Shown in pieces: positions 22,154-34,682 of a stretch of DNA of 64,000 bases; position 1 is the stretch's first letter, and each line of letters opens with the position of its first letter. The notes beneath the pieces were generated by a model that saw only the letters and a list, made by a program, of their open reading frames with translations, made no database searches and was not told where the DNA came from. Both the position numbers and the translations under genes were made by a program. Location: the sequence record DRR723986_4199; one strand, written 5' to 3'.

Positions 22154-22668
22154 TGGACTTTCTGTTTGGAATACTTCTGGTTCCCTTTTTCCCACAGTTG
22201 GACGATCCCCAAGAGAATTACGCAGCAACCATGGACAGGTTGGAGCAACGCCTGAATGCGGGTCAGAGGCAAGTTGGCAGTGTAGCTGAGCCCAAGGATT
22301 CAGGTGATGTTCAGCTTGACAGTGCCTTGAGCGTTCGCGCCATGGATTTGCCGCCGATTACTGGTCGTTTGTTTCAGTGGTCGGGCACCCAGTCGGGTCA
22401 TGAGGCCAATCGACAGGCGGCCGTCAATTTGTCGCTGCAATCGTTACGTCTGACGGGTTTGATTGAATCGGCTGGTCAACAGGTCGCCATTTTGAATGAC
22501 GGTCAGGTAGACCATGTTGTCGGGGTTGGCAGCTACGTATTGGACACATACAGAGTAACCTCGTTTGGACCCGGTCAAGTTGTACTGTCGCCGCTAGACC
22601 CCAGGGCTGGAGGCAAGCGCCTTGAGCTGAGCTTCATGCCCGTGAATTCACTCGAGGTTAGCCAATGA
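22150..22668 (+). CDS. PilP-like protein lacking a lipobox
   Basis: Position between pilO and pilQ; SLQSLRLTGLI...VGVGSYV resembles the PilP beta domain; no Cys in the protein. Confidence 0.6.
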   Translation: MMDFLFGILLVPFFPQLDDPQENYAATMDRLEQRLNAGQRQVGSVAEPKDSGDVQLDSALSVRAMDLPPITGRLFQWSGTQSGHEANRQAAVNLSLQSLRLTGLIESAGQQVAILNDGQVDHVVGVGSYVLDTYRVTSFGPGQVVLSPLDPRAGGKRLELSFMPVNSLEVSQ

Positions 22669-24746
22669 ACACTCAACCAATTGTTACCGGGTTACTGCGA
22701 ACGCGGTTTAAAGCAGTGGCTCTGATTGCGTGTTTGCTGATGCATGTGCAAGTTCACGCCGTGGCTGTGGTGGATGCCAAGTTGGAAGAGAGGGCTGACC
22801 AGACTCGAATTCTCCTGTTCTTCGATCAGGCTTTGGATGGCAAATTGGGCCTGTTTCGGATGACGAACCCTGCAAGACAGGTACTTGATTTTCCGGTGGA
22901 GTTGGGCAACAGCACATTGCCCGTGATTTTCCCCACCGACAGCAGAATCAAAAAGGCTCAGCTGATCGCTGCGGGAGGCAAGACCCGCTTGGTGTTGGAG
23001 TTGGCGCAAAATTACGAAGTACGGTTAAATCAGAAAGATCGCCTTATTGATTTGACATTCTCCGGGCCAAAACCCTTTCAGCCCGATGGTGGGCAGGCTG
23101 CTGTGTTGTCTGAGCACAGTGAGCTCAAAGACACTGTTGCACAGTTGATGGGCAAGCCTGCCCTGATTGCAGAAGGGCCGGTCATGAAAACCTGGAATCT
23201 GAGCAAGACGGGCGGAAAATGGGTACTTCGGCTGGAGTTTGATCGGCCCGATCTGATCGCGGATGCGGTGCTGATGAACGACCAGTTGAAAGTCAGGTTT
23301 GCACATGCACGCATGGCGGACGGGGTTCCATTAAAGCTACCAATCACTGCGGACGTTCCAGTTGCCCAAGTTGAGTTGAAGCCGGGCGATTTGGCACTCA
23401 CCGTTCAAATGAAGTTGAATGGTGCTACCCACTTGGTACGCCAACGTGGAGAGGTGGTGGAGGTAGAGCTCAACCCGACGAGAAAGGCCACTGAGCAAAC
23501 AAAGGCGATTGAACTGAAGTCTGGAACTTCTGAGCAAAGTGTGGTGGCCCGATACACCGGCCGACCGATTACTTTGGATTTCAAAGATGCAGACATACGA
23601 ACTGTGATGCAGGTGTTTGCAGACTTCACAAAAATGAATCTGGTGTTAAGCGACTCGGTTCAGGGCAAGGTGTCGGTGTTTCTTAAAGATGTGCCATGGG
23701 ACCAGGCGCTGGATATTGTGATGCGCTCCAAAGGGTTGGTGTCAAGTCAGTCGGGCAATGTACTGTTGGTTTCCACGCCCACCGATGTCACCAACGACCA
23801 GTTTCAAACCGCCAATCGGCGTGCTCAGGACGAAATGGAACCTTTGGTGTCCAAGGTGTTTCAGGTGAGCTATCAAAAAACAGCCGACCTGGTGACGTTG
23901 ATCAAATCAGAGGATTCCAAACTCTTGTCAGCGCGAGGCACCCTGATTTCAGATGAGCGCACCAGCCAGATCTTCATTCAAGACACACCCAGCAGGCTTG
24001 AGCGAATCAGCATGATTGTCAACGGCCTGGACAAGCCTGTGAAGCAGGTCATGATCGAGGCACGTGTTGTACTGGCGGATACCACTGTATCCAAGGATTT
24101 GGGGGTCAGGCTAAGGGCTTTGTCAGCACGGGCAGATCCGGGTTTTGATGATGTCGGCGATCAGTTTGGCAGCGGCAATTTTGTGAACACCGGCGTTGAA
24201 AATGCGACCAATCTTGGCTACACGCTGTTCAATGCGAATTCAACGCGATTGATTAATTTGCAACTTCGGGCCCTTGAAATTGAAAACAAGGTGCGCACCG
24301 TGTCCAATCCACGCGTGATTACATCCAACAAGGAACCCGCCCTGATTGAGCAAGGTACGGAGATTCCCTATCAAATCGCCACCAGCAGTGGGGCGACAGC
24401 CACCGAATTCAAAGAGGCCAATCTGAAGCTTGCTGTCACACCTCAAATTTCGCCGGACGGCACAATTTTACTGGATGTAGATGTAGCGAAGGACTCGATC
24501 GGAATCGAAACGTCCAACGGGCCCGCCATTGATACCCGACGAGTAAAAACCAAAGTTTTGGTGAGTGATGGGGGCACTGTGGTGTTGGGCGGTATTTTTG
24601 AAGAGGACGACAATGTGTTGAATGACAAAACACCATTTTTAGGGGATGTGCCGGGATTGGGCGTGTTGTTCCGCGGCAAAAATGAGTCCAAGCGCAGGGC
24701 CGAATTGTTAATCTTTTTGACGCCGGTTGTGCTCACAAGCCAATAG
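22665..24746 (+). CDS. pilQ: Type IV pilus secretin PilQ
   Basis: AMIN-like N-terminus, YTGRPITLDF, VPWDQALD, QVMIEARVV, GTEIPY, ELLIFLTP. Confidence 0.95.
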   Translation: MNTQPIVTGLLRTRFKAVALIACLLMHVQVHAVAVVDAKLEERADQTRILLFFDQALDGKLGLFRMTNPARQVLDFPVELGNSTLPVIFPTDSRIKKAQLIAAGGKTRLVLELAQNYEVRLNQKDRLIDLTFSGPKPFQPDGGQAAVLSEHSELKDTVAQLMGKPALIAEGPVMKTWNLSKTGGKWVLRLEFDRPDLIADAVLMNDQLKVRFAHARMADGVPLKLPITADVPVAQVELKPGDLALTVQMKLNGATHLVRQRGEVVEVELNPTRKATEQTKAIELKSGTSEQSVVARYTGRPITLDFKDADIRTVMQVFADFTKMNLVLSDSVQGKVSVFLKDVPWDQALDIVMRSKGLVSSQSGNVLLVSTPTDVTNDQFQTANRRAQDEMEPLVSKVFQVSYQKTADLVTLIKSEDSKLLSARGTLISDERTSQIFIQDTPSRLERISMIVNGLDKPVKQVMIEARVVLADTTVSKDLGVRLRALSARADPGFDDVGDQFGSGNFVNTGVENATNLGYTLFNANSTRLINLQLRALEIENKVRTVSNPRVITSNKEPALIEQGTEIPYQIATSSGATATEFKEANLKLAVTPQISPDGTILLDVDVAKDSIGIETSNGPAIDTRRVKTKVLVSDGGTVVLGGIFEEDDNVLNDKTPFLGDVPGLGVLFRGKNESKRRAELLIFLTPVVLTSQ

Positions 24747-24795
24747 CACAAGCTTTACCGTACAATGATTTGATTGTTCACAAAGATTTAACGAA

Positions 24796-25353
24796 GTGTC
24801 TAATCAATGCATTGTGCTGGTGGGCATGATGGGTGCCGGCAAAAGCACAGTCGGCAAGGCCTTGGCCAAGCATCTGTCCTGGGAATTCACTGACACCGAT
24901 CACCTGATCGAGCATCAAACAGGTGTCAGCATTCCCGTTATCTTCGAGATTGAAGGTGAGGCCGGTTTTCGTCGACGTGAATCGACTGCGCTGGCCAGCT
25001 TTGTTGGCCGGGAACGGCAGGTCATAGCCACCGGCGGGGGTATAGTGCTGGCGCCGGAGAATCGTGAAATCCTCAGACGAATAGGTGCCGTGGTGTACCT
25101 GAGTGCTTCAGCAGCTGAGCTTTATCAGCGAACCCGTCTGGACAAAAATCGTCCTTTGCTGCAAGGCCCCAACCCTCGAAAAAAAATTGAAGAATTGTTG
25201 GCACAACGACTTCCGCTTTACAAAGAGTGCGCCGATGTTGTGATTGAAACCGGGCGGCAACCGGTTTACCAAATTGTGAACAAAATCAGCCATGCTTTAA
25301 AATTGGGTCAGAAGGCACCCGACACTGAACAGAAGGCCACCGGAACAGAATGA
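24796..25353 (+). CDS. aroK: Shikimate kinase
   Basis: [24 protein letters not shown]. Confidence 0.97.
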
Positions 25354-26444
25354 GTCAATACACCCTTGAAGTTGATTTGGGCGAACGCAGTTACCCGATT
25401 CACATCGGCGCGGGTTTGCTAGACAATGCCGACCTTTTCCAGCCGCACGTGAGCGGTAAAACCGTGATGATTTGCACCAACACCACGGTGGGGCCATTGT
25501 ATGCAGATCGTTTGAGAGCCACTTTGCAAAGCGCTGGAGCGAAACTGGTGCACTTGGTCAGCTTGCCTGACGGCGAGGAATACAAAGACTGGCCCACGCT
25601 GCAGCGCGTGTTTGATGCATTGCTTCAAAACCATTGTGACCGAAAAACCGTGTTGGTGGCCTTGGGCGGTGGCGTGATTGGGGACATGGGTGGTTTTGCG
25701 GCCTCGGCTTTCATGCGCGGAATTCCGTTCATTCAGGTGCCCACCACTTTGTTGAGCCAGGTAGACAGCTCGGTGGGTGGAAAAACGGGCATCAATCACC
25801 CTTTGGGCAAAAACATGATTGGGGCGTTTTACCAGCCTCAGATGGTGTTGACCGATATTTCTACCCTGAATACCTTGCCGGATCGAGAGTTGAGCTGCGG
25901 CTTGGCTGAAATCATCAAGCATGGTGCGATCGCAGACACCGAGTACCTGGACATGGTCGAGGGCAACATGCCTGCTTTGTTGAACCGAGATCCGGGGTTG
26001 CTGGCGCTTGTGGTGAAGCGTTCTTGCGAGATCAAGGCCGATGTGGTGTCGAAAGATGAACGTGAAGGCGGTATACGCGCCATTCTGAATTTCGGCCACA
26101 CCTTTGGGCATGCGATTGAAGCCGGTATGGGTTATGGTCAGTGGTACCACGGCGAAGCTGTGGGTTGTGGCATGGTGATTGCGGCCGATTTGTGTCGCCG
26201 AATGGGGCGTTTAAGTGCAGAGGAATCTGCGCGGCTGAAAAAGATTGTGATTGATGCCCGTTTGCCGGCCATTCCGCCACGCTTGGGTGTCGACAAGTTC
26301 ATGGCGCTGATGGCGCATGACAAAAAAGCAGACTCTGGCTCGATTAAATATGTGCTCTTGAATGGTCTGGGTGGGGCCTCGACCTCGCCCGCCGATGAGG
26401 CCCTAGTGCGGCAAACCTTACAGGAAATGGGGGCAGGGGACTGA
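25350..26444 (+). CDS. aroB: 3-dehydroquinate synthase
   Basis: [33 protein letters not shown]. Confidence 0.98.
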
Positions 26445-26446
26445 CC

Positions 26447-27580
26447 GTGCGCAACTTCGAACTCAGTTTGGCCCCTTATGCAGTCAGCTCCGCGAATACA
26501 CGCGGACGATTGCACCCTGAAAAAAGCCCGGAAGGCCGAACCGAGTTTGAGCGTGACCGCGACCGCATTATTCACAGTGCGGCGTTTCGTCGCCTTGAGT
26601 ACAAAACCCAGGTTTTTGTAAACACCGAAGGTGATTTGTACCGTACACGCCTCACGCACAGCCTTGAAGTGGCGCAAATTGCGCGTAGCATTTCCCGCAA
26701 TTTGGGCTTGAATGAGGAGTTGACTGAGGCTGTGGCGCTCGCCCACGACTTGGGGCACACGCCTTTTGGCCATGCTGGGCAAGACGCGCTGAATGAATGC
26801 ATGGCACCACATGGCGGCTTTGAGCACAATTTACAAAGCCTGCGGGTGGTTGATGAGCTGGAGGAAAAGTACGCGGCGTTCAATGGCTTGAACTTGTGTT
26901 TCGAAACACGCGAAAGTATTTTGAAACACTGTTCGAAGCCCAATGCAGAGAAGCTGGGTGATGTGGCGGACCGGTTCTTGAGCAATCGCCGCCCGGTACT
27001 CGAGGCGCAAGTGACCAATCTGGCCGATGAAATTGCCTACAACAATCACGACATTGATGATGGTTTGCGTTCAGGCCTGATTACTCTGGAACAAGCGGCT
27101 GAGGTGTCACTGTTCAAAATGCATCTGGACCGTGTCAAGGCCCGACATCCGAACATCGAAGGGCGCAGGCTGATTCATGAAACAGTTCGGGGCATTATCA
27201 ATGCTTTGGTTCAAGACCTTTTGCATGAATCGGAACGCCGAATTCAAACCATGAAACCCACCTGTGTGGCTGATGTGCAGCTGGCCGACAAGTTGATTGG
27301 CTTTAGTCCGGAAATGGCTGAGTTGAATCACGAGTTGAAGGTGTTTTTGCGCAAGTCCCTGTATCAGCATTATCAGGTGTTGCGGGCCACACTCAAAGCA
27401 AGACGGGTCGTGGAAGAGTTGTTCCACATTTTCATGGGGGATCCGCGTTTGTTGCCCCCCCAGTTTTATCGTCGTTCGGAAGCCGACATTCCCCGAGCTA
27501 TCGCAGACTACATTGCGGGCATGACGGATCGCTATGCCATGAAAGAGCACCAGCGCCTCACCGTGCCCGGCGTTCAATAA
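26447..27580 (+). CDS. dgt: Deoxyguanosinetriphosphate triphosphohydrolase (HD family)
   Basis: [38 protein letters not shown]. Confidence 0.96.
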
Positions 27581-27589
27581 TTCTTCCTC

Positions 27590-28294
27590 ATGGCCCGGCA
27601 GCCCCGTCTTTTCATTCCTGATTGCCCCATGGTTCTGGAGTTGCAGGGCATTGCCGGTCAAGAGGTATTTAAAACGCGTGAGGCGTTTTCCTTGTTTCAC
27701 AGTCAACTGCCATTGAGTGCAGTCGAGGAAACCGTGGCTATTCACGCTTACTGCATGGTGCCCGCTGGTTCCTTACTGATGATTAGTGCTTCAGAAGCCA
27801 GCTGCGCCGGTCGTTTTGTACAAAACCTGAACCGGCATTTTTCGCCCGCCGTGCGTCAGGTGCAAGCAGTGCATTCCAGTGCACTGTGGGAACCTCGGTT
27901 TAAATCCACCGTGGTTCAACCCGGTTTGCACAGCCTCAAGGCCTGCCTGTTTGTTGAGCAGTTGGCAGCGCGCGCCGCGGGTGCACCGGATCTTGCCACT
28001 TACCCCTGGAGCAGTTTTGCTGCACATGCTGGTGTGGTCAATGAGGCTTGGTTGAGTGATCTGCCTGTGTATTGGCAGTTGGGTAATACGCCGTTTGAGC
28101 GTCAAAGCCGCTACAGGCAGTTCAGTGAACAGGGCCTGGGTGAGCACGACAGCCATGGTTTGTCACAGTGCTTGCAAAAAGGATGGCTTTGGAGCGATGA
28201 TGCTTTTTGCGCGCAAATTCAAGAGCTTGCGAACCGGCCGGTTCGCCCTCGACCGCGCGGGCGACCCGTCAAAACAATCAAAAGCACAATTTAA
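27590..28294 (+). CDS. Y1/REP-associated tyrosine transposase (RAYT)-like protein, predicted catalytically inactive
   Basis: MARQPR start, IHAYC, LWEPRFKS, YPWSS, YWQLGNTPFER, RGRP end match the family; HUH reads GSL and catalytic YIxLNP reads FVEQLA. Confidence 0.85.
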   Translation: MARQPRLFIPDCPMVLELQGIAGQEVFKTREAFSLFHSQLPLSAVEETVAIHAYCMVPAGSLLMISASEASCAGRFVQNLNRHFSPAVRQVQAVHSSALWEPRFKSTVVQPGLHSLKACLFVEQLAARAAGAPDLATYPWSSFAAHAGVVNEAWLSDLPVYWQLGNTPFERQSRYRQFSEQGLGEHDSHGLSQCLQKGWLWSDDAFCAQIQELANRPVRPRPRGRPVKTIKSTI

Positions 28295-28313
28295 GTGCGT
28301 TCTTTTTTTGGTG

Positions 28314-28369
28314 TGTCCCTAATTAATAAGCCCTGATTTCGATGGGGTGTATTAAATAGGGTCAGACCC
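28314..28369. repeat. Imperfect inverted repeat plus GGGTCAGACCC palindrome (REP-like)
   Basis: TGTCCCTAATTAATA (28314-28328) vs TATTAAATAGGGTCA (28350-28364), 13/15 complementary; GGGTC-A-GACCC at 28359-28369. Confidence 0.75.
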
Positions 28370-28381
28370 CTTTTATTTTCC

Positions 28382-28410
28382 TTGAGAATGTTGCCGCACT
28401 GCAGTAAAGT
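28382..28410 (+). promoter_or_regulatory. Putative sigma70 promoter of gltBD
   Basis: TTGAGA-N17-TAAAGT about 30 nt upstream of the gltB ATG. Confidence 0.6.
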
Positions 28411-28440
28411 GACCCACGTACCGAAATCAGGGGCTTTTCC

Positions 28441-31400
28441 ATGCAACAAGACATCCGAAAGATTGCCGAAGAAAAAGGCATGTACTCCGCCAGCAATGAA
28501 CACGACGCCTGTGGCGTTGGCTTTGTGGCGCACATTAAAGGCAAGCGCACTCACGAAATTATCGAAGGTGGCTTGAAGATTCTGGAAAACCTGGACCACC
28601 GCGGTGCTGTGGGCGCCGACCCTTTGATGGGCGACGGTGCCGGTATCCTGATCCAGATTCCCGATGCCTTCTTCCGTGAAGAAATGGCCAAGCAGGGCGT
28701 GACTTTGCCACCCGCGGGCGAATACGGTGTGGGCATGTTGTTTTTGCCCAAAGAGACTGCTTCACGCATTGCCTGTGAACAGGAAATTGAACGTGCCATC
28801 AAAGCCGAGGGTCAAGTGCTGCTGGGCTGGCGTGATGTGCCAGTGAATGCTGACATGCCGATGAGCCCCACTGTGCGCGCCAAAGAGCCCGTGATTCGCC
28901 AGGTGTTTGTGGGCCGTGGACGCGACATCATGGTGACCGATGCGCTGGAACGCAAACTGTACGTAATTCGCAAACGTGCTGTACACGCCATCAAGAACCT
29001 GAATCTGGCACACGGCACCGAGTACTTCAGCCCTTCGATGAGCGCCCGTACCATTGTGTACAAGGGCTTGTTGTTGGCCAACCAGGTGGGCGAGTATTAC
29101 CTTGATCTAAAGGACTCACGCTGCGTTTCTGCCCTCGCACTGGTTCACCAGCGCTTCTCCACCAACACATTCCCCGAGTGGCCTTTGGCTCACCCGTACC
29201 GCATGTTGGCGCACAACGGTGAAATCAACACCGTGAAAGGCAACTTCAACTGGATGCGTGCACGTGAAGGTGTGATGAAGAGCGCCGTGTTGGGTGACGA
29301 TCTGCAAAAGCTGTACCCCTTGATTTTTGAAGGTCAATCCGACACAGCCTGTTTCGACAACTGTCTGGAACTGCTGGTGATGGCAGGCTATCCAATTGCC
29401 CAGGCCATGATGATGATGGTGCCCGAGGCTTGGGAGCAGCACACCTTGATGGACGACAATCGTCGCGCCTTCTACGAATACCATGCCGCCATGATGGAAC
29501 CTTGGGACGGCCCTGCCGCCATGGCCTTCACCGATGGCAAGCAGATTGGTGCCACGCTGGACCGCAACGGCTTGCGCCCAGCACGTTACATCGTGACCGA
29601 AGATGACCTGGTTGTGATGGCTTCGGAATCGGGCACATTGCCAATTCCAGAAAGCAAGATTGTCAAGAAGTGGCGCCTGCAGCCCGGCAAAATGTTCCTG
29701 ATCGACATGGAAGCTGGCCGCATCATCAACGACGACGAGTTGAAGAACCAGCTCAGCGCCGCCAAGCCCTACAAGCAGTGGATCGACACCATCCGCGTCA
29801 AGCTGGATGAAGTGGAAGGCCAGCCTGAGCCAATCGAGCCGAACGAAACTTTGCTGGATCGCCAGCAGGCTTTTGGCTATACCCAGGAAGACTTGAAATT
29901 CCTGATGGCCCCCATGCTGCAAAACGGCGAAGAGGCCACCGGCTCTATGGGCAATGACAGCCCATTGGCAGTCATGTCCAACAAGCTCAAACCCCTGTAC
30001 AACTACTTCAAGCAGTTGTTCGCGCAGGTGACCAACCCACCGATCGACCCGATCCGTGAGAACCTGGTGATGAGTTTGAACAGCTTTATCGGCCCCAAGC
30101 CAAACCTGCTGGATTTGAACAACATCAATCCGCCGATGCGCCTTGAAGTGTCGCAGCCCGTGCTGACCTCCAAAGACATGGCGAAGATTCGCAACATTGA
30201 AGCCTTCACCGGCGGCAAATTCACCAGTCACGAACTGAACATTTGTTACCCAGTGGCCTGGGGCAAGGAAGGCATTGAGGCGCGAATCGCTTCCCTGTGT
30301 GCCGAAGCCCGCGATGCCGTGAAACAGGGTGTGAACATCCTGATCATCACCGACCGCATGATGAGCCGCGACAATGTGGCCATTCCGGCGTTGTTGGCTG
30401 TGTCCGCCATTCACCAGCATCTGGTGAAAGTGGGTCTGCGCACCTCCACAGGTTTGGTGGTTGAAACCGGCTCTGCCCGTGAAGTGCACCACTTCGCCTT
30501 GTTGGCGGGTTACGGTGCCGAAGCTGTACACCCATACCTGGCCATGGAAACCATTGCTGACATGAGCAAAGGCCTGCCGGGCGACCTGAGCCCCGAAAAG
30601 GCCGTGTACAACTACATCAAGGCAGTGGGCAAGGGCCTGATGAAAGTGATGTCCAAGATGGGCATTTCAACCTACATGAGCTACACCGGCGCGCAAATTT
30701 TCGAAGCCGTGGGTTTGAACCAGGCTTTCGTGGATGCCTATTTCTCTGGCACACCCACCAAGGTGGAAGGCATCGGCGTGTTTGAGGTGGCTGAGGAAGC
30801 CATTCGTATTCACCAGGCTGCATTCAGCCCTGACCCTGTGCTGGCTGGCGCCCTGGATGCCGGTGGTGAATACGCCTGGCGTACCCGTGGTGAAGAGCAC
30901 ATGTGGACCCCCGATGCAATTGCAAAACTGCAGCACTCCACACGCAGCGGCACCTATAACACCTACAAGGAATATGCGCAGATCATCAACGACCAAAGCA
31001 AGCGTCACATGACTTTGCGCGGTTTGTTTGAGTTCAAGATCGACCCAAGCAAGGCCATTCCGATCGAGGAAGTAGAGCCTGCCGAAGAGATCGTCAAGCG
31101 CTTCGCAACCGGTGCGATGTCGCTGGGCTCGATTTCGACTGAGGCGCACTCCACCTTGGCTGTGGCCATGAACCGCATTGGCGGCAAGAGCAACACTGGT
31201 GAAGGCGGCGAAGACGAAAAGCGATACAGCGCCGAGCTGCGCGCTGGCTTGGACAAGTTTGGTCCTGGCACAGGCCCGATTGGCGAAGGTGCCACGCTGA
31301 AAAGCGAATTGGGCGATGTGGTGGTTGCAGACTTCCCCTTGAAGAAAGGTGATTCACTGCGCTCACGCATCAAGCAGGTGGCTTCTGGCCGTTTTGGTGT

Positions 31401-33165
31401 TACCGCTGAATATCTCACATCTGCCGATCAAATCCAGATCAAGATGGCCCAAGGTGCCAAGCCTGGTGAAGGTGGTCAGTTGCCCGGTGGCAAGGTGTCC
31501 GAGTACATCGGCAAGCTGCGTTATTCCGTGCCTGGTGTGGGCTTGATTTCTCCACCCCCGCACCACGACATTTACTCCATTGAAGATTTGGCCCAACTGA
31601 TTCACGACCTGAAAAACGTGAACCCACAGGCGTCTGTGTCGGTGAAGCTCGTGTCTGAAGTGGGTGTGGGTACGATTGCAGCGGGTGTGTCGAAAGCCAA
31701 AGCAGATCACCTGGTGATCGCGGGTCAAGACGGCGGTACTGGTGCATCTCCCGTCTCATCCATAAAGCACGCCGGTACCAATTGGGAACTGGGCTTGGCT
31801 GAAACACAGCAAACACTGGTGCTGAACGGCCTGCGTGGTCGCATTCGCGTACAGGTTGATGGCCAAATGAAAACCGGCCGCGACGTGGTGATCGGTGCCA
31901 TGTTGGGCGCTGATGAATTTGGCTTTGCCACCGCACCGCTGGTGGTTGAAGGTTGCATCATGATGCGCAAGTGCCACTTGAACACCTGCCCCGTGGGCGT
32001 GGCAACACAGAACCCCGAACTTCGCAAGAAGTTCACCGGCAAGCCAGAGCATGTGGTGAACTACTTCTTCTTCGTGGCCAATGAAGTGCGCGAAATCATG
32101 GCCCAGTTGGGCATTCGCAAGTTTGACGACCTGATTGGTCGTGCGAATCTGCTTGACATGAAGAAAGGCATTTCTCACTGGAAGGCTAAGGGTCTGGACT
32201 TCAGCCGTTTGCTGTGGGTGCCCGAAGGCACCGACGAGCCTTTGCTGCACAACGGCAGTCAGGACCACGGCTTGGACAAAGCGCTGGACCAGAAACTGAT
32301 CCAGTTGGCCAAGCCTGCGCTGGAAAAAGGCGAGCGCGTCTCTTTCATCACGCCGATCAAAAACGTGAACCGCACAGCCGGCGCCATGTTGTCGGGCGAA
32401 GTGGCCAAGAAGTACGGCCACGCTGGTTTGCCAGATGACACCATTCACATTCAGTTCACAGGTACTGCGGGTCAATCCTTCGGCGCCTTCCTGGCTCACG
32501 GCGTAACTGCTGATTTGGTGGGTGAAGGCAACGACTACGTGGGCAAGGGCTTGAGTGGTGGTCGCATCATCGTGCGCCCCACCAATGATTTCCGCGGTTT
32601 GTCAGAAGAAAACATGATTGTGGGCAACACCGTGTTGTACGGTGCAATTGCCGGTGAGGCATTCCTGAGCGGCGTGGCTGGCGAGCGATTTGCCGTGCGC
32701 AACTCGGGTGCAGCGGCGGTGATTGAGGGCACTGGCGACCATGGTTGTGAATACATGACTGGCGGAACCGTTGTGGTGCTGGGTGAAACTGGTCGCAACT
32801 TCGCTGCTGGCATGAGTGGTGGCTTGGCCTATGTGTACGACATCGACGGCTTGTTCGCCAAGCGTTGCAACATGGCGCAGGTAGAACTGGAAGAAGTGGT
32901 GCCTGCCACCGAGCAGGAAGCACTGGGCAACCGTGAAGTTTGGCACAGCCCTGCACGTGGTGCAGACCGTCAGCCTGATGAAGTGATTTTGAAAGGTTTG
33001 ATCGAACGTCACGCCCGTTACACCGGCAGTGAACGCGCCAAGGAAATTCTGGAAAACTGGGGCACTGAACGCAAGAAGTTCATCAAAGTGTTCCCGACAG
33101 AATACCGTCGCGCCTTGAAAGAACTGTACGTGGCAGCGCAGGCCAAACCTGCTGTGGCCGCTTGA
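28441..33165 (+). CDS. gltB: Glutamate synthase large subunit
   Basis: EHDACGVGF (Ntn Cys), [34 protein letters not shown]. Confidence 0.99.
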
Positions 33166-33194: not shown

Positions 33195-34682
33195 ATGGGA
33201 AAGGTCACAGGTTTTATGGAGTTTGAGCGTTTGAAGGAAGCCAGTGAGGCTCCGGAAAAGCGCGTCAAGCACTACAAAGAATTTGTAATTACACTGAACG
33301 ACGACGAAGCCAAAATTCAGGGTGCACGTTGTATGGACTGCGGTATTCCGTTTTGTAACAACGGTTGTCCGGTCAATAACATCATCCCCGACTTCAACGA
33401 CCTGGTGTACAAGCAAGACTGGAAGGCTGCGTTGCAAACACTGCACAGCACCAACAACTTCCCCGAGTTCACGGGCCGCATTTGCCCGGCACCTTGCGAA
33501 GCCGCCTGCACCTTGGGTATTCATGAAGACCCCGTTGGCATCAAGAGCATTGAACACGCCATCATCGACAAGGGTTGGGAAAACAACTGGGTGGTGCCAC
33601 AGGTACCAGCCCAGAAAACCGGCAAGAAAGTGGCTGTGGTGGGTTCAGGCCCTGCAGGCATGGCTGCCGCACAGCAGCTGGCGCGTGTGGGGCACGATGT
33701 GACTGTGTTTGAGAAGAACGACCGCATTGGTGGTTTGCTGCGTTACGGCATTCCCGACTTCAAGATGGAAAAGTATCACATTGACCGCCGTGTTGAGCAA
33801 ATGCAAGCCGAAGGCGTGACCTTCAAGACAGGTGTGTTTGTGGGCGAAAAGCTGGCTGAGGGTGGCATCACCAATTTGGCCAAGGAAACCGTTACACCGA
33901 AAGAATTGATGGCTCAGTTTGACGCCGTTATTTTGACGGGTGGATCTGAAGTGCCACGCGACTTGCCAATTCCCGGTCGTCAGTTGAAAGGTGTTCATTT
34001 TGCGATGGAATTCTTGCCACTGCAAAACCGCGTGAATGCCGGCGACAAGTTGAAAGACCAGATCATGGCCACGAAGAAGAATGTGCTGGTGATTGGCGGC
34101 GGTGACACGGGCTCGGACTGTGTTGGCACATCCAACCGCCACGGTGCCAAGCAGGTCACTCAAATTGAATTGATGCCTCAGCCACCCGAAGAGGAAAACA
34201 AGCCTTTGGTGTGGCCTTATTGGCCCATGAAAATGCGCACTTCTTCTTCCCACGAAGAAGGTGTGCAGCGTGACTGGGCAGTGACCACCAAGGAATTCAT
34301 CGACGATGGCAAAGGCAATGTAAAAGCAGCCAAGTGCGCCAAAGTCGAATGGGTGAAAGACGAAGCCACCGGTCAGATGAAGATGCAAGAAATTGCAGGT
34401 TCCGAGTTCATGATCGAGGCTGATCTGGTGTTGTTCGCCATGGGCTTTACCAACCCCGCGAAGAGTATTCTGGACGCCTTTGGTGTTGAAAAAGACAACC
34501 GTGGCAACGCCAAAGCCGCCACGGATGGTGAAGGCTGCTACCGCACCAATGTGGACAAAGTATTCGCTGCGGGCGACATGCGCCGAGGCCAGTCGCTGGT
34601 GGTGTGGGCGATTCGAGAAGGCCGTCAGGCCGCACGTGAGGTGGATGAGTTCCTGATGGGCGCGACCGTATTGCCGCGTTAA
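33195..34682 (+). CDS. gltD: Glutamate synthase small subunit
   Basis: [37 protein letters not shown]. Confidence 0.99.

Follow-up and report, generated by a model that had tools for sequence, protein, structure and literature searches.

A TIRYT/RAYT-derived protein without its catalytic residues, encoded next to gltB in Betaproteobacteria, as a candidate modulator of glutamate synthase expression

The X locus

The stretch of DNA analyzed here, 64,000 nt of sequence record DRR723986_4199 (hereafter the window), encodes directly ahead of the glutamate synthase genes gltB and gltD a protein derived from the TIRYT/RAYT family of Y1 transposases. It has lost the catalytic residues of the family, is maintained by purifying selection, and is followed by short repeats that abut the predicted gltB promoter. 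The working name X is used for its gene, the open reading frame (ORF) at 27590-28294. This ORF begins with ATG 9 nt past the dgt stop and ends 146 nt ahead of gltB (Table 1). A full-length, 234-residue ORF at this distance from dgt had been called in the original prediction and is confirmed by the ORF listing; every peptide string it cited as family scaffold (MARQPR, IHAYC, LWEPRFKS, YPWSS, LGNTPF and RGRP) is present in the translation.

Table 1. Features of the X-gltB region, in window coordinates
Feature	Position	Strand	Description and basis
dgt	26447-27580	+	dGTP triphosphohydrolase-like; upstream neighbor, from ORF listing
X	27590-28294	+	Intact 234-aa TIRYT/RAYT-derived protein without HUH and catalytic Tyr; from ORF, homologs, profile, fold and ratio of non-synonymous to synonymous substitution rates (dN/dS)
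G60-S61-L62 codons	27767-27775	+	At the HUH metal-binding position; from alignments
F121 codon, TTT	27950-27952	+	At the nucleophilic Tyr position; from alignments
R223-G224-R225-P226 codons	28256-28267	+	Near-invariant C-terminal RGRP; from 117-sequence alignment
M1, GTCCCTAATTA	28315-28325	+	Putative terminal-repeat copy; conserved block of Limnobacter spacers
M2, GACCCTATTTA	28353-28363	-	Putative inverted repeat copy; pairs with M1 into the 28310-28368 hairpin
M3, GACCCCTTTTA	28365-28375	+	Putative direct repeat copy; 50 nt after M1, 7 nt before the -35 hexamer
Predicted gltB promoter, sigma-70-like	TTGAGA 28382-28387, 17 nt, TAAAGT 28405-28410	+	Consensus scan
11-nt perfect inverted repeat	Arms CCCTGATTTCG 28331-28341 and CGAAATCAGGG 28422-28432		Right arm just before gltB ATG
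gltB	28441-33165	+	Glutamate synthase large subunit
gltD	33195-34682	+	Glutamate synthase small subunit

Family and fold of X

X is a derivative of the TIRYT / TnpA-Y1 subclass 2.1 / RAYT Group 1 family. Because the single protein matches no family, this membership was established at the level of profile or fold. X alone matched nothing in Pfam or NCBIfam, and PF01797 was not found even at E <= 10; sub-threshold hits to DUF2806 and TIGR03899 in these single-sequence scans are noise, and an endoglucanase returned by a phmmer search of the PDB with X is a chance match. The homologs of X fall from 100% to about 50% identity in Limnobacter, and then to 33-38% in betaproteobacterial proteins, many of which bear PF01797; X matches its PF01797-bearing relatives at E-values of 1e-33 to 1e-38. 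A HMMER search of 1.84 billion representatives found 1710 relatives at E <= 0.001. PF01797 is matched by 48 of 117 aligned relatives, and the profile of these 117 sequences matches E. coli TnpA-REP (PDB 4er8) at E 2.8e-6, with ISDra2 TnpA next.

The AlphaFold model of X (pLDDT 96.6, pTM 0.92) gave 22 Foldseek matches at E <= 0.001, headed by 4er8_A (E 6.5e-7) and including the TnpA proteins of IS608, ISDra2 and IS200; on this model X carries the HUH-nuclease core fold. Outside the active site the family scaffold is well kept: W140-S141-S142, LGNTPFER and RGRP are invariant or near-invariant over the 117 relatives. Within RGRP, a motif that we take to be AT-hook-like, G224 does not vary, and at least 90% of the sequences have R225 and P226.

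Loss of the catalytic residues

The HUH region reads LMPNHFHLLVS in the canonical relative P0101 and MVPAGSLLMIS in X, which puts G60-S61-L62 at the HUH position. In the Tyr helix the canonical RYIELNPVR is replaced by LFVEQLAAR, and the Tyr of YRYIELNPVRA aligns with F121. Alignment with canonical relatives therefore bears out both substitutions on which the original prediction was built, loss of HUH near 27767-27775 and replacement of the nucleophilic Tyr by Phe. Its further claim that the protein is catalytically dead is almost certainly right, to judge from the Limnobacter sequences: the His pair is missing from the HUH position in all 24 of them, and position 121 is mostly F, in some cases Y (L009, L021, L022) and in one W, a pattern in keeping with an aromatic residue of structural function and not with a nucleophile. 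Could an intact paralog act in trans? As a stand-in for the genome of the window we used the nearest genome, G001, which has 80% of sampled words in common with it. No PF01797 match at E <= 1 was found anywhere in G001, and an intact paralog acting in trans is therefore not indicated.

Linkage of X to gltB

A locus scan with one genome per species gave at least 598 loci with relatives carrying LGNTPFER[EQ], of which the best 80 are referred to here as the named loci. In 80 of these 80, X immediately precedes gltB and shares its strand; the set is biased towards orthologs because it comprises the closest relatives of the query. The named loci span Limnobacter, Herminiimonas, Noviherbaspirillum, Janthinobacterium and Glaciimonas (Oxalobacteraceae being among the families covered), as well as Paraburkholderia, Burkholderia, Caballeronia, Trinickia, Pararobbsia, Ralstonia and Parvibium. 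The order dgt-X-gltB holds in all 21 Limnobacter loci that have both flanks, but dgt adjoins X in only some of the 80. The conserved partner of X is gltB, not dgt. A description of the gene as fixed between dgt and gltB thus stands for its gltB side only, adjacency to dgt being variable across the order.

A wider sample comprised 301 genomes of the GTDB order corresponding to Betaproteobacteria, 169 of which (including the unpublished genome G050) have an X-family match at E <= 1e-10. The 120 loci analyzed cover most of the 150 matches listed; G050, further copies and 164 weaker matches lie outside them. Among the 123 copies in this sample, gltB is at most 1.5 kb downstream in 43, 78 are unlinked and two, near a contig end, are left unclassed. 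In a FastTree phylogeny of 135 rows, a branch with a support of 98 (local support only) separates 73 unlinked rows from 62 others, namely all 55 linked rows, X among them, and seven scored as unlinked. Four of these seven were inspected and three proved to be near gltB after all (two of them upstream, by 3.7 and 1.4 kb, and one about 5 kb away in inverted orientation). Rows on the linked side of the tree cluster according to taxonomic family; on the unlinked side families are intermixed, and identical multi-copy genes occur. The X group is fixed upstream of gltB and vertically inherited.

The two classes also differ in the state of the active site. Both HUH and Tyr are present in 21 of 44 gltB-linked copies (the window included), HUH only in 4, Tyr only in 5 and neither in 14; for the 78 unlinked copies the corresponding figures are 72, 0, 3 and 3. 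One or both motifs have therefore been lost in 23/44 linked versus 6/78 unlinked copies. The replacement residues differ by lineage, being QxQ/V and AxH/V in the Burkholderia type, GxL/F in Limnobacter, and RxL/W, ExH/A, RxF/F and so on in others. Parsimony over the linked rows requires at least six changes between the intact and lost states, counted on a quick tree of genomes that are related and so not independent; the tree is unrooted and the direction cannot be read from it, but since the wider family has the intact state, loss is the natural direction. Catalysis is dispensable at the gltB locus, and Limnobacter is no novelty but one of several independent losses in an old syntenic ortholog group.

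Some side observations on copy number and gene order can be added. Four genomes (G239, G042, G226 and G290) have 6-9 unlinked, catalytically intact family copies, some of them identical and three in tandem in G042:C3; these look like TIRYT elements that are actively multiplying. On the upstream side, the dgt-X spacer varies between 5 and 20 nt among the Limnobacter loci L001-L022. The order pilQ-aroK-aroB-dgt ahead of X (22665-27580 in the window) is common to 38 of the 80 named loci within 6 kb, and in loci of the Paraburkholderia type dgt and X are about 1.7 kb apart, with other DNA in between. Direct reading revealed no recognizable Shine-Dalgarno sequence before the X start codon, either in the window (27578-27592) or in Limnobacter L001-L022, which suggests that X may be translationally coupled to dgt or else expressed at a low level.

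Selection on the X protein

A whole-genome search of 25 genomes of the same genus found a single X copy without internal stops in 23. Nei-Gojobori dN/dS values were computed for divergence bins of 3, 2, 18 and 111 pairs, leaving out L001 (identical to the window) and the truncated L022 and L023. The medians are 0.078-0.121 for X, as against 0.006-0.055 for dgt and 0.009-0.031 for gltB. Within X the value is 0.32 for residues 49-70, the former HUH strand pair, and 0.10-0.15 elsewhere, the C-terminal extension included. On these rates X is under purifying selection despite its lost catalytic residues, and the relaxation of constraint is limited to the strand region around the former HUH. The earlier inference of a maintained gene free of stops and frameshifts is upheld by these figures (intact in 23/25 genomes, dN/dS about 0.1). 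The ortholog collection and dN/dS analysis proposed as a check on it brought to light neither broken copies nor a dN/dS near 1; the exceptions are two same-genus genomes in which the region upstream of gltB has been replaced.

Could X still be a decaying, functionless relic, open by chance or because of DNA signals needed by dgt or gltB? Its non-synonymous evolution is 2-5 times faster than that of its neighbors, and it is absent from two genomes of the genus, as a relic might be. Yet the copies found are intact in 23 of 23 cases even though synonymous divergence often exceeds 1, a dN/dS of about 0.1 argues for selection on the protein, and neither the long invariant peptide blocks (YPWSS, GNTPF, RGRP) nor a fold predicted at pLDDT 96.6 would be expected of such a relic. 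We regard neutral decay as largely refuted and as the least probable of the explanations considered here.

Terminal repeats at the gltB promoter

The conserved blocks of the Limnobacter X-gltB spacers are M1, M2, M3 and the predicted promoter, and the spacing from M1 to M2 is 40 nt in 22 of 22 intergenic regions. The single hairpin first proposed for 28314-28436 resolves into several features. The spacer has an imperfect hairpin at 28310-28368, with 24-nt arms that are 79% complementary and include M1 and M2, and a separate 11-nt inverted repeat, with the promoter between the two. Nor does the structure belong to a REP family in this genome, a hypothesis rejected because the repeat is unique to the locus; it appears to be the element's own terminal inverted repeat, multi-copy only among relatives whose enzyme is intact.

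This identification comes from comparison across the order. The terminal repeat has the core G[TA]CCCYAWTT. Searched for as G[TA]CCC[TC]NWTT in the linked loci, it has a density of 5.06 per kb within X-gltB spacers and of 0.12 per kb over the remaining sequence. Of 43 linked loci, 36 carry it, and 26 have two or more copies, which mostly form a direct pair with a spacing of 48-50 nt. The strict repeat pattern is found in 39 of the 80 named loci, a low count because the Burkholderia-type variant escapes it. Repeats outside the spacer are mostly 30-120 nt upstream of X and in the opposite orientation, reading AATTGGGGTCAGAGTC, and in the orthologs X is therefore bracketed by inverted repeats. 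The AATTGGGGTCAGAGTC-type repeats contain GGGGWSAS, and direct reading of the window shows that M1, M2 and M3 each agree with it at 7/8 positions. The left repeat has been lost from the window, since just 9 nt lie between X and dgt. From these comparisons we identify M1-M3 as the probable right-hand terminal repeats of the X element, abutting the -35 hexamer of gltB.

The 11-nt inverted repeat has its left arm in the loop of the M1/M2 hairpin, and its right arm spans the purine-rich stretch before the gltB start codon. In a read-through transcript from dgt-X this pairing could mask the gltB ribosome-binding site; we have kept it out of the mechanism proposed below because complementarity of at least 7 nt occurs in only 11 of 22 Limnobacter loci. 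RNA folding of 28295-28445 gave a modest z of -2.0, with 6 of 200 shuffles as stable, and was not used as evidence. An Rfam scan of 27000-29000 detected no known leader or riboswitch, the one match, to a snoRNA, being below threshold and due to chance.

The Burkholderia-type spacer (L057, L083 and L050, from Paraburkholderia, Burkholderia and Caballeronia, respectively) is about 300 nt long, and where the strict motif would be expected there is an inverted pair that has diverged, GGCCCCAATAAAA ... TTTAATTGGGGTTCGA. Stretches with TGCACC, which look like NtrC half-sites, are present as well.

Repeat copies and the state of the enzyme

How many copies of the repeat does each genome have? Counts were made with the fixed pattern CTGWCCCYAWTT, and only in genomes whose own locus carries CTGWCCCYAWTT. 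The 17 genomes with an intact linked X have 2, 2, 2, 4, 4, 5, 6, 6, 12, 12, 12, 13, 13, 13, 19, 51 and 64 copies (median 12; at least 6 copies in 10 of the 17). Among the 16 genomes with a dead X, seven have one copy, one has 2, four have 3 and four have 4; the five Limnobacter genomes, all with a dead X, have 1-4. Reading the pattern backward as a control gave 0-2 copies, and 0-1 in Limnobacter. In G001, G012 and G016 the locus is the one place where the exact 14-mer spanning M2 and M3 is found, near-matches being no more frequent than in the control. The 51 copies in G093 are mostly inverted pairs 35-48 nt apart and resemble REPIN dimers. Repeat families thus appear to track the intact enzyme, with Limnobacter keeping the locus copies alone, but this contrast comes from one fixed pattern applied to related genomes, the genomes with a dead X are on the whole smaller, and unlinked intact paralogs are also present in some of those with an intact X.

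These counts bear on the proposal that X is still an active nuclease or transposase, working with non-canonical residues and maintaining a repeat family that the fixed pattern missed. It is true that the pattern searches were limited to one motif form and that a few Limnobacter orthologs (L009, L021, L022) have Tyr at position 121. But position 121 varies between F, Y and W, no Limnobacter copy has the His pair, and constraint on the protein is weakest in the former HUH strand. Moreover, three genomes have the exact 14-mer nowhere but at the locus, with near-matches within the control, and the left terminal repeat is absent, only 9 nt being left between X and dgt. Residual catalysis is therefore very unlikely, as is neutral decay.

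A possible role for X in gltBD expression

The best-supported reading, which we infer from position, conservation and co-retention, is that X regulates gltBD. In full, we suppose X to be a tamed, repeat-binding modulator of gltBD that descends from a fixed Y1 transposase flanked by terminal inverted repeats (TIRs), and we put the probability of this whole explanation at about one half. According to this scheme, a TIR-flanked Y1 HUH transposase would have become fixed upstream of gltB-gltD in an early betaproteobacterium and then have been inherited vertically. In Limnobacter the HUH, the Tyr and the left repeat have been lost and no dispersed copies remain, whereas the fold, the C-terminal extension with RGRP, and M1-M3 have been retained. 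The protein would no longer cut but could still recognize its cognate repeat, binding M1-M3 either as duplex DNA or as an extruded M1/M2 hairpin; the presumed AT-hook-like RGRP would suit the A/T-rich half of the repeat. Bound X might then modulate the transcriptional output of the gltBD promoter or the read-through arriving from dgt-X. The conserved adjacency to gltB, together with a motif pair 48-50 nt apart that ends just before the -35 hexamer, has the look of an operator arrangement.

What happens where X and gltB part? The repeat pair stays right upstream of gltB after X has been displaced by a 3.7-kb insert (G179) or a 1.4-kb gap (G326). With X and gltB on different contigs (G196), there are two direct repeats 49 nt apart upstream of gltB, and with 2.7 kb between the two genes (L042) there are motifs at -127, -88 and -77 from gltB. 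In two genomes of the genus Limnobacter without X by gltB, G008 and G017, other DNA has taken the place of the entire upstream region, and the motif is missing as well. In G017 (65% complete), the DNA upstream of gltB (L125, G017:C170, 1-445) codes for the C-terminal portion of a transposase or integrase of IS type. Five X-less genomes of other families have the strict motif upstream of gltB in none of six regions. In the X-less genome G029 (locus L119) a lone near-match, TTCCCTAATTGA, lies about 130 nt upstream of gltB and may be a relic of the repeat.

Since the repeats remain after displacement of X, they are selected in cis, regardless of the position of X. This is one ground for a possible, though not a likely, alternative in which X is a non-catalytic binder of DNA or hairpins whose selected role lies elsewhere, for instance at replication forks, in the nucleoid or in protecting structured DNA; its position by gltB would be a frozen accident, and M1-M3 would be kept as promoter, UP-element or terminator sequence. 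Retention of the repeats with X on another contig or 1.4-3.7 kb off favors this reading. It would also account for purifying selection on the whole fold except the former active site, and it echoes a speculation of Quentin et al. (2018; PMC6006769), in the sections of that paper available, that the serine motif by the Tyr of subclass 2.1 proteins may target the replication fork. Three findings tell against it. The adjacency of X to gltB persists order-wide while the upstream neighbor changes, which is hard to explain without a functional tie; catalytic loss is concentrated in the gltB-linked class (23/44 versus 6/78); and Limnobacter lacks dispersed repeat copies that could serve as genome-wide targets.

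Besides the limits on the repeat counts given above, several observations weigh against a role for X as modulator of gltBD. A genome of the same family (G284), as the alternative just described would allow, has kept X and has no motif at gltB. In G008, a genome of the same genus with a completeness rating of 100%, gltB lies in another context with neither X nor the motif, and X is therefore not indispensable for gltB expression. Lacking an obvious Shine-Dalgarno sequence, X may be poorly expressed. Its C-terminal domain alone (residues 136-234; model pLDDT 75.7) has no Foldseek match in the PDB at E <= 0.001, and thus none to an HTH or another fold that binds duplex DNA. Some other factor could bind M1-M3, or these could act as an UP-like element or as a terminator, and the M1/M2 hairpin of Limnobacter is indeed followed by a T-rich run. 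Finally, the co-conservation of X and the repeats could stem from common descent alone.

Comparison with known systems

RAYT and TIRYT genes are relatives of transposases, single-copy and inherited vertically, whose catalytic centre published work takes as universal. The ortholog group described here holds a fixed position, and its members have lost catalysis repeatedly without escaping purifying selection, the dispersed repeats having gone alongside. Loss of catalysis, selection and repeats found only at the gltBD promoter together imply that the replicative function is separable from the host-beneficial one. A concrete target is thereby named, the expression of gltBD, for which dead and intact orthologs can be compared. 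Glutamate synthase is the entry point of nitrogen assimilation, and an unrecognized regulator of this process in Betaproteobacteria may be revealed; the case is relevant both to domesticated transposases and to the control of nitrogen assimilation. Our searches of the literature found no RAYT or TIRYT that is linked to gltB or that is catalytically dead and under selection; members may be included in published supplements (RAYT group lists, TIRYT alignment, subclass 2.1 figures).

Close to X are the TIRYTs of Di Nocera, De Gregorio and Rocco (2013; PMC3733652), whose terminal inverted repeats share GGGGWSAS. Like the TIRYT/TIRtron system, the X group has a RAYT-like Y1 protein of about 235 aa with GGGGWSAS terminal repeats, its orthologs being flanked by AATTGGGGTCAGAGTC-type copies; the repeats are also moderately abundant in some genomes and often dimeric, as in G093. 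In the available text of that paper every aligned TIRYT is stated to have kept HUH and the catalytic Tyr, whereas X has neither, its left repeat is gone and its repeat family is extinct in the genome. The fixed position of X by gltB has no counterpart in the same text.

In the classification of Quentin et al. (PMC6006769), TnpA-Y1 subclass 2.1 (2.1.1) is equated with RAYT Group 1 of Bertels. Its members average about 238 aa, have WSS after the Tyr helix and a C-terminal extension, as X does, and have the NHVH-type HUH and YIELNP Tyr motif of intact X relatives; they are prevalent in Betaproteobacteria and low in copy number. Sequences without core motifs were set aside there as probably non-functional, and no REP-like sequences near subclass 2.1 genes are reported in the sections available. 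The X group differs on both points, having motif-less members under purifying selection and conserved flanking repeats.

The best profile and fold match to X is TnpA-REP (YafM) of E. coli, solved with a REP hairpin (PDB 4er8; TM 0.70 on the target). Identity is about 10%, and the E. coli protein, of 165 aa, has HUH and Tyr and no C-terminal extension of about 90 aa; its REPs are GTAG-tagged GC-rich hairpins, as against the A/T-flanked GGGGWSAS repeat of X.

RAYTs are held to persist through a benefit to the host (Bertels et al. 2017, PMC5581495; Bertels and Rainey, preprint 10.1101/2021.07.10.451892), according to the parts of both sources drawn on here. X resembles the REPIN-RAYT system in being single-copy, vertically inherited and derived from a transposase, and in that repeat populations depend on the enzyme; it is unlike it in that RAYTs keep their catalytic centre. 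We would go further only tentatively, to the doubtful idea that the benefit to the host, for hundreds of millions of years, has been repeat binding at one locus and not the cutting of DNA. X and its right-hand repeats would then be a dedicated control module for glutamate synthase in all Betaproteobacteria, and lineages such as Limnobacter and Burkholderia sensu lato would have independently completed the shift to a pure transcription factor, a shift made at least six times. The available text of the preprint predicts that, where the benefit comes from the RAYT alone, REPIN duplication is lost and REPINs become extinct. The X copies of Limnobacter and of the Burkholderia type look like this REPIN-extinction end-point.

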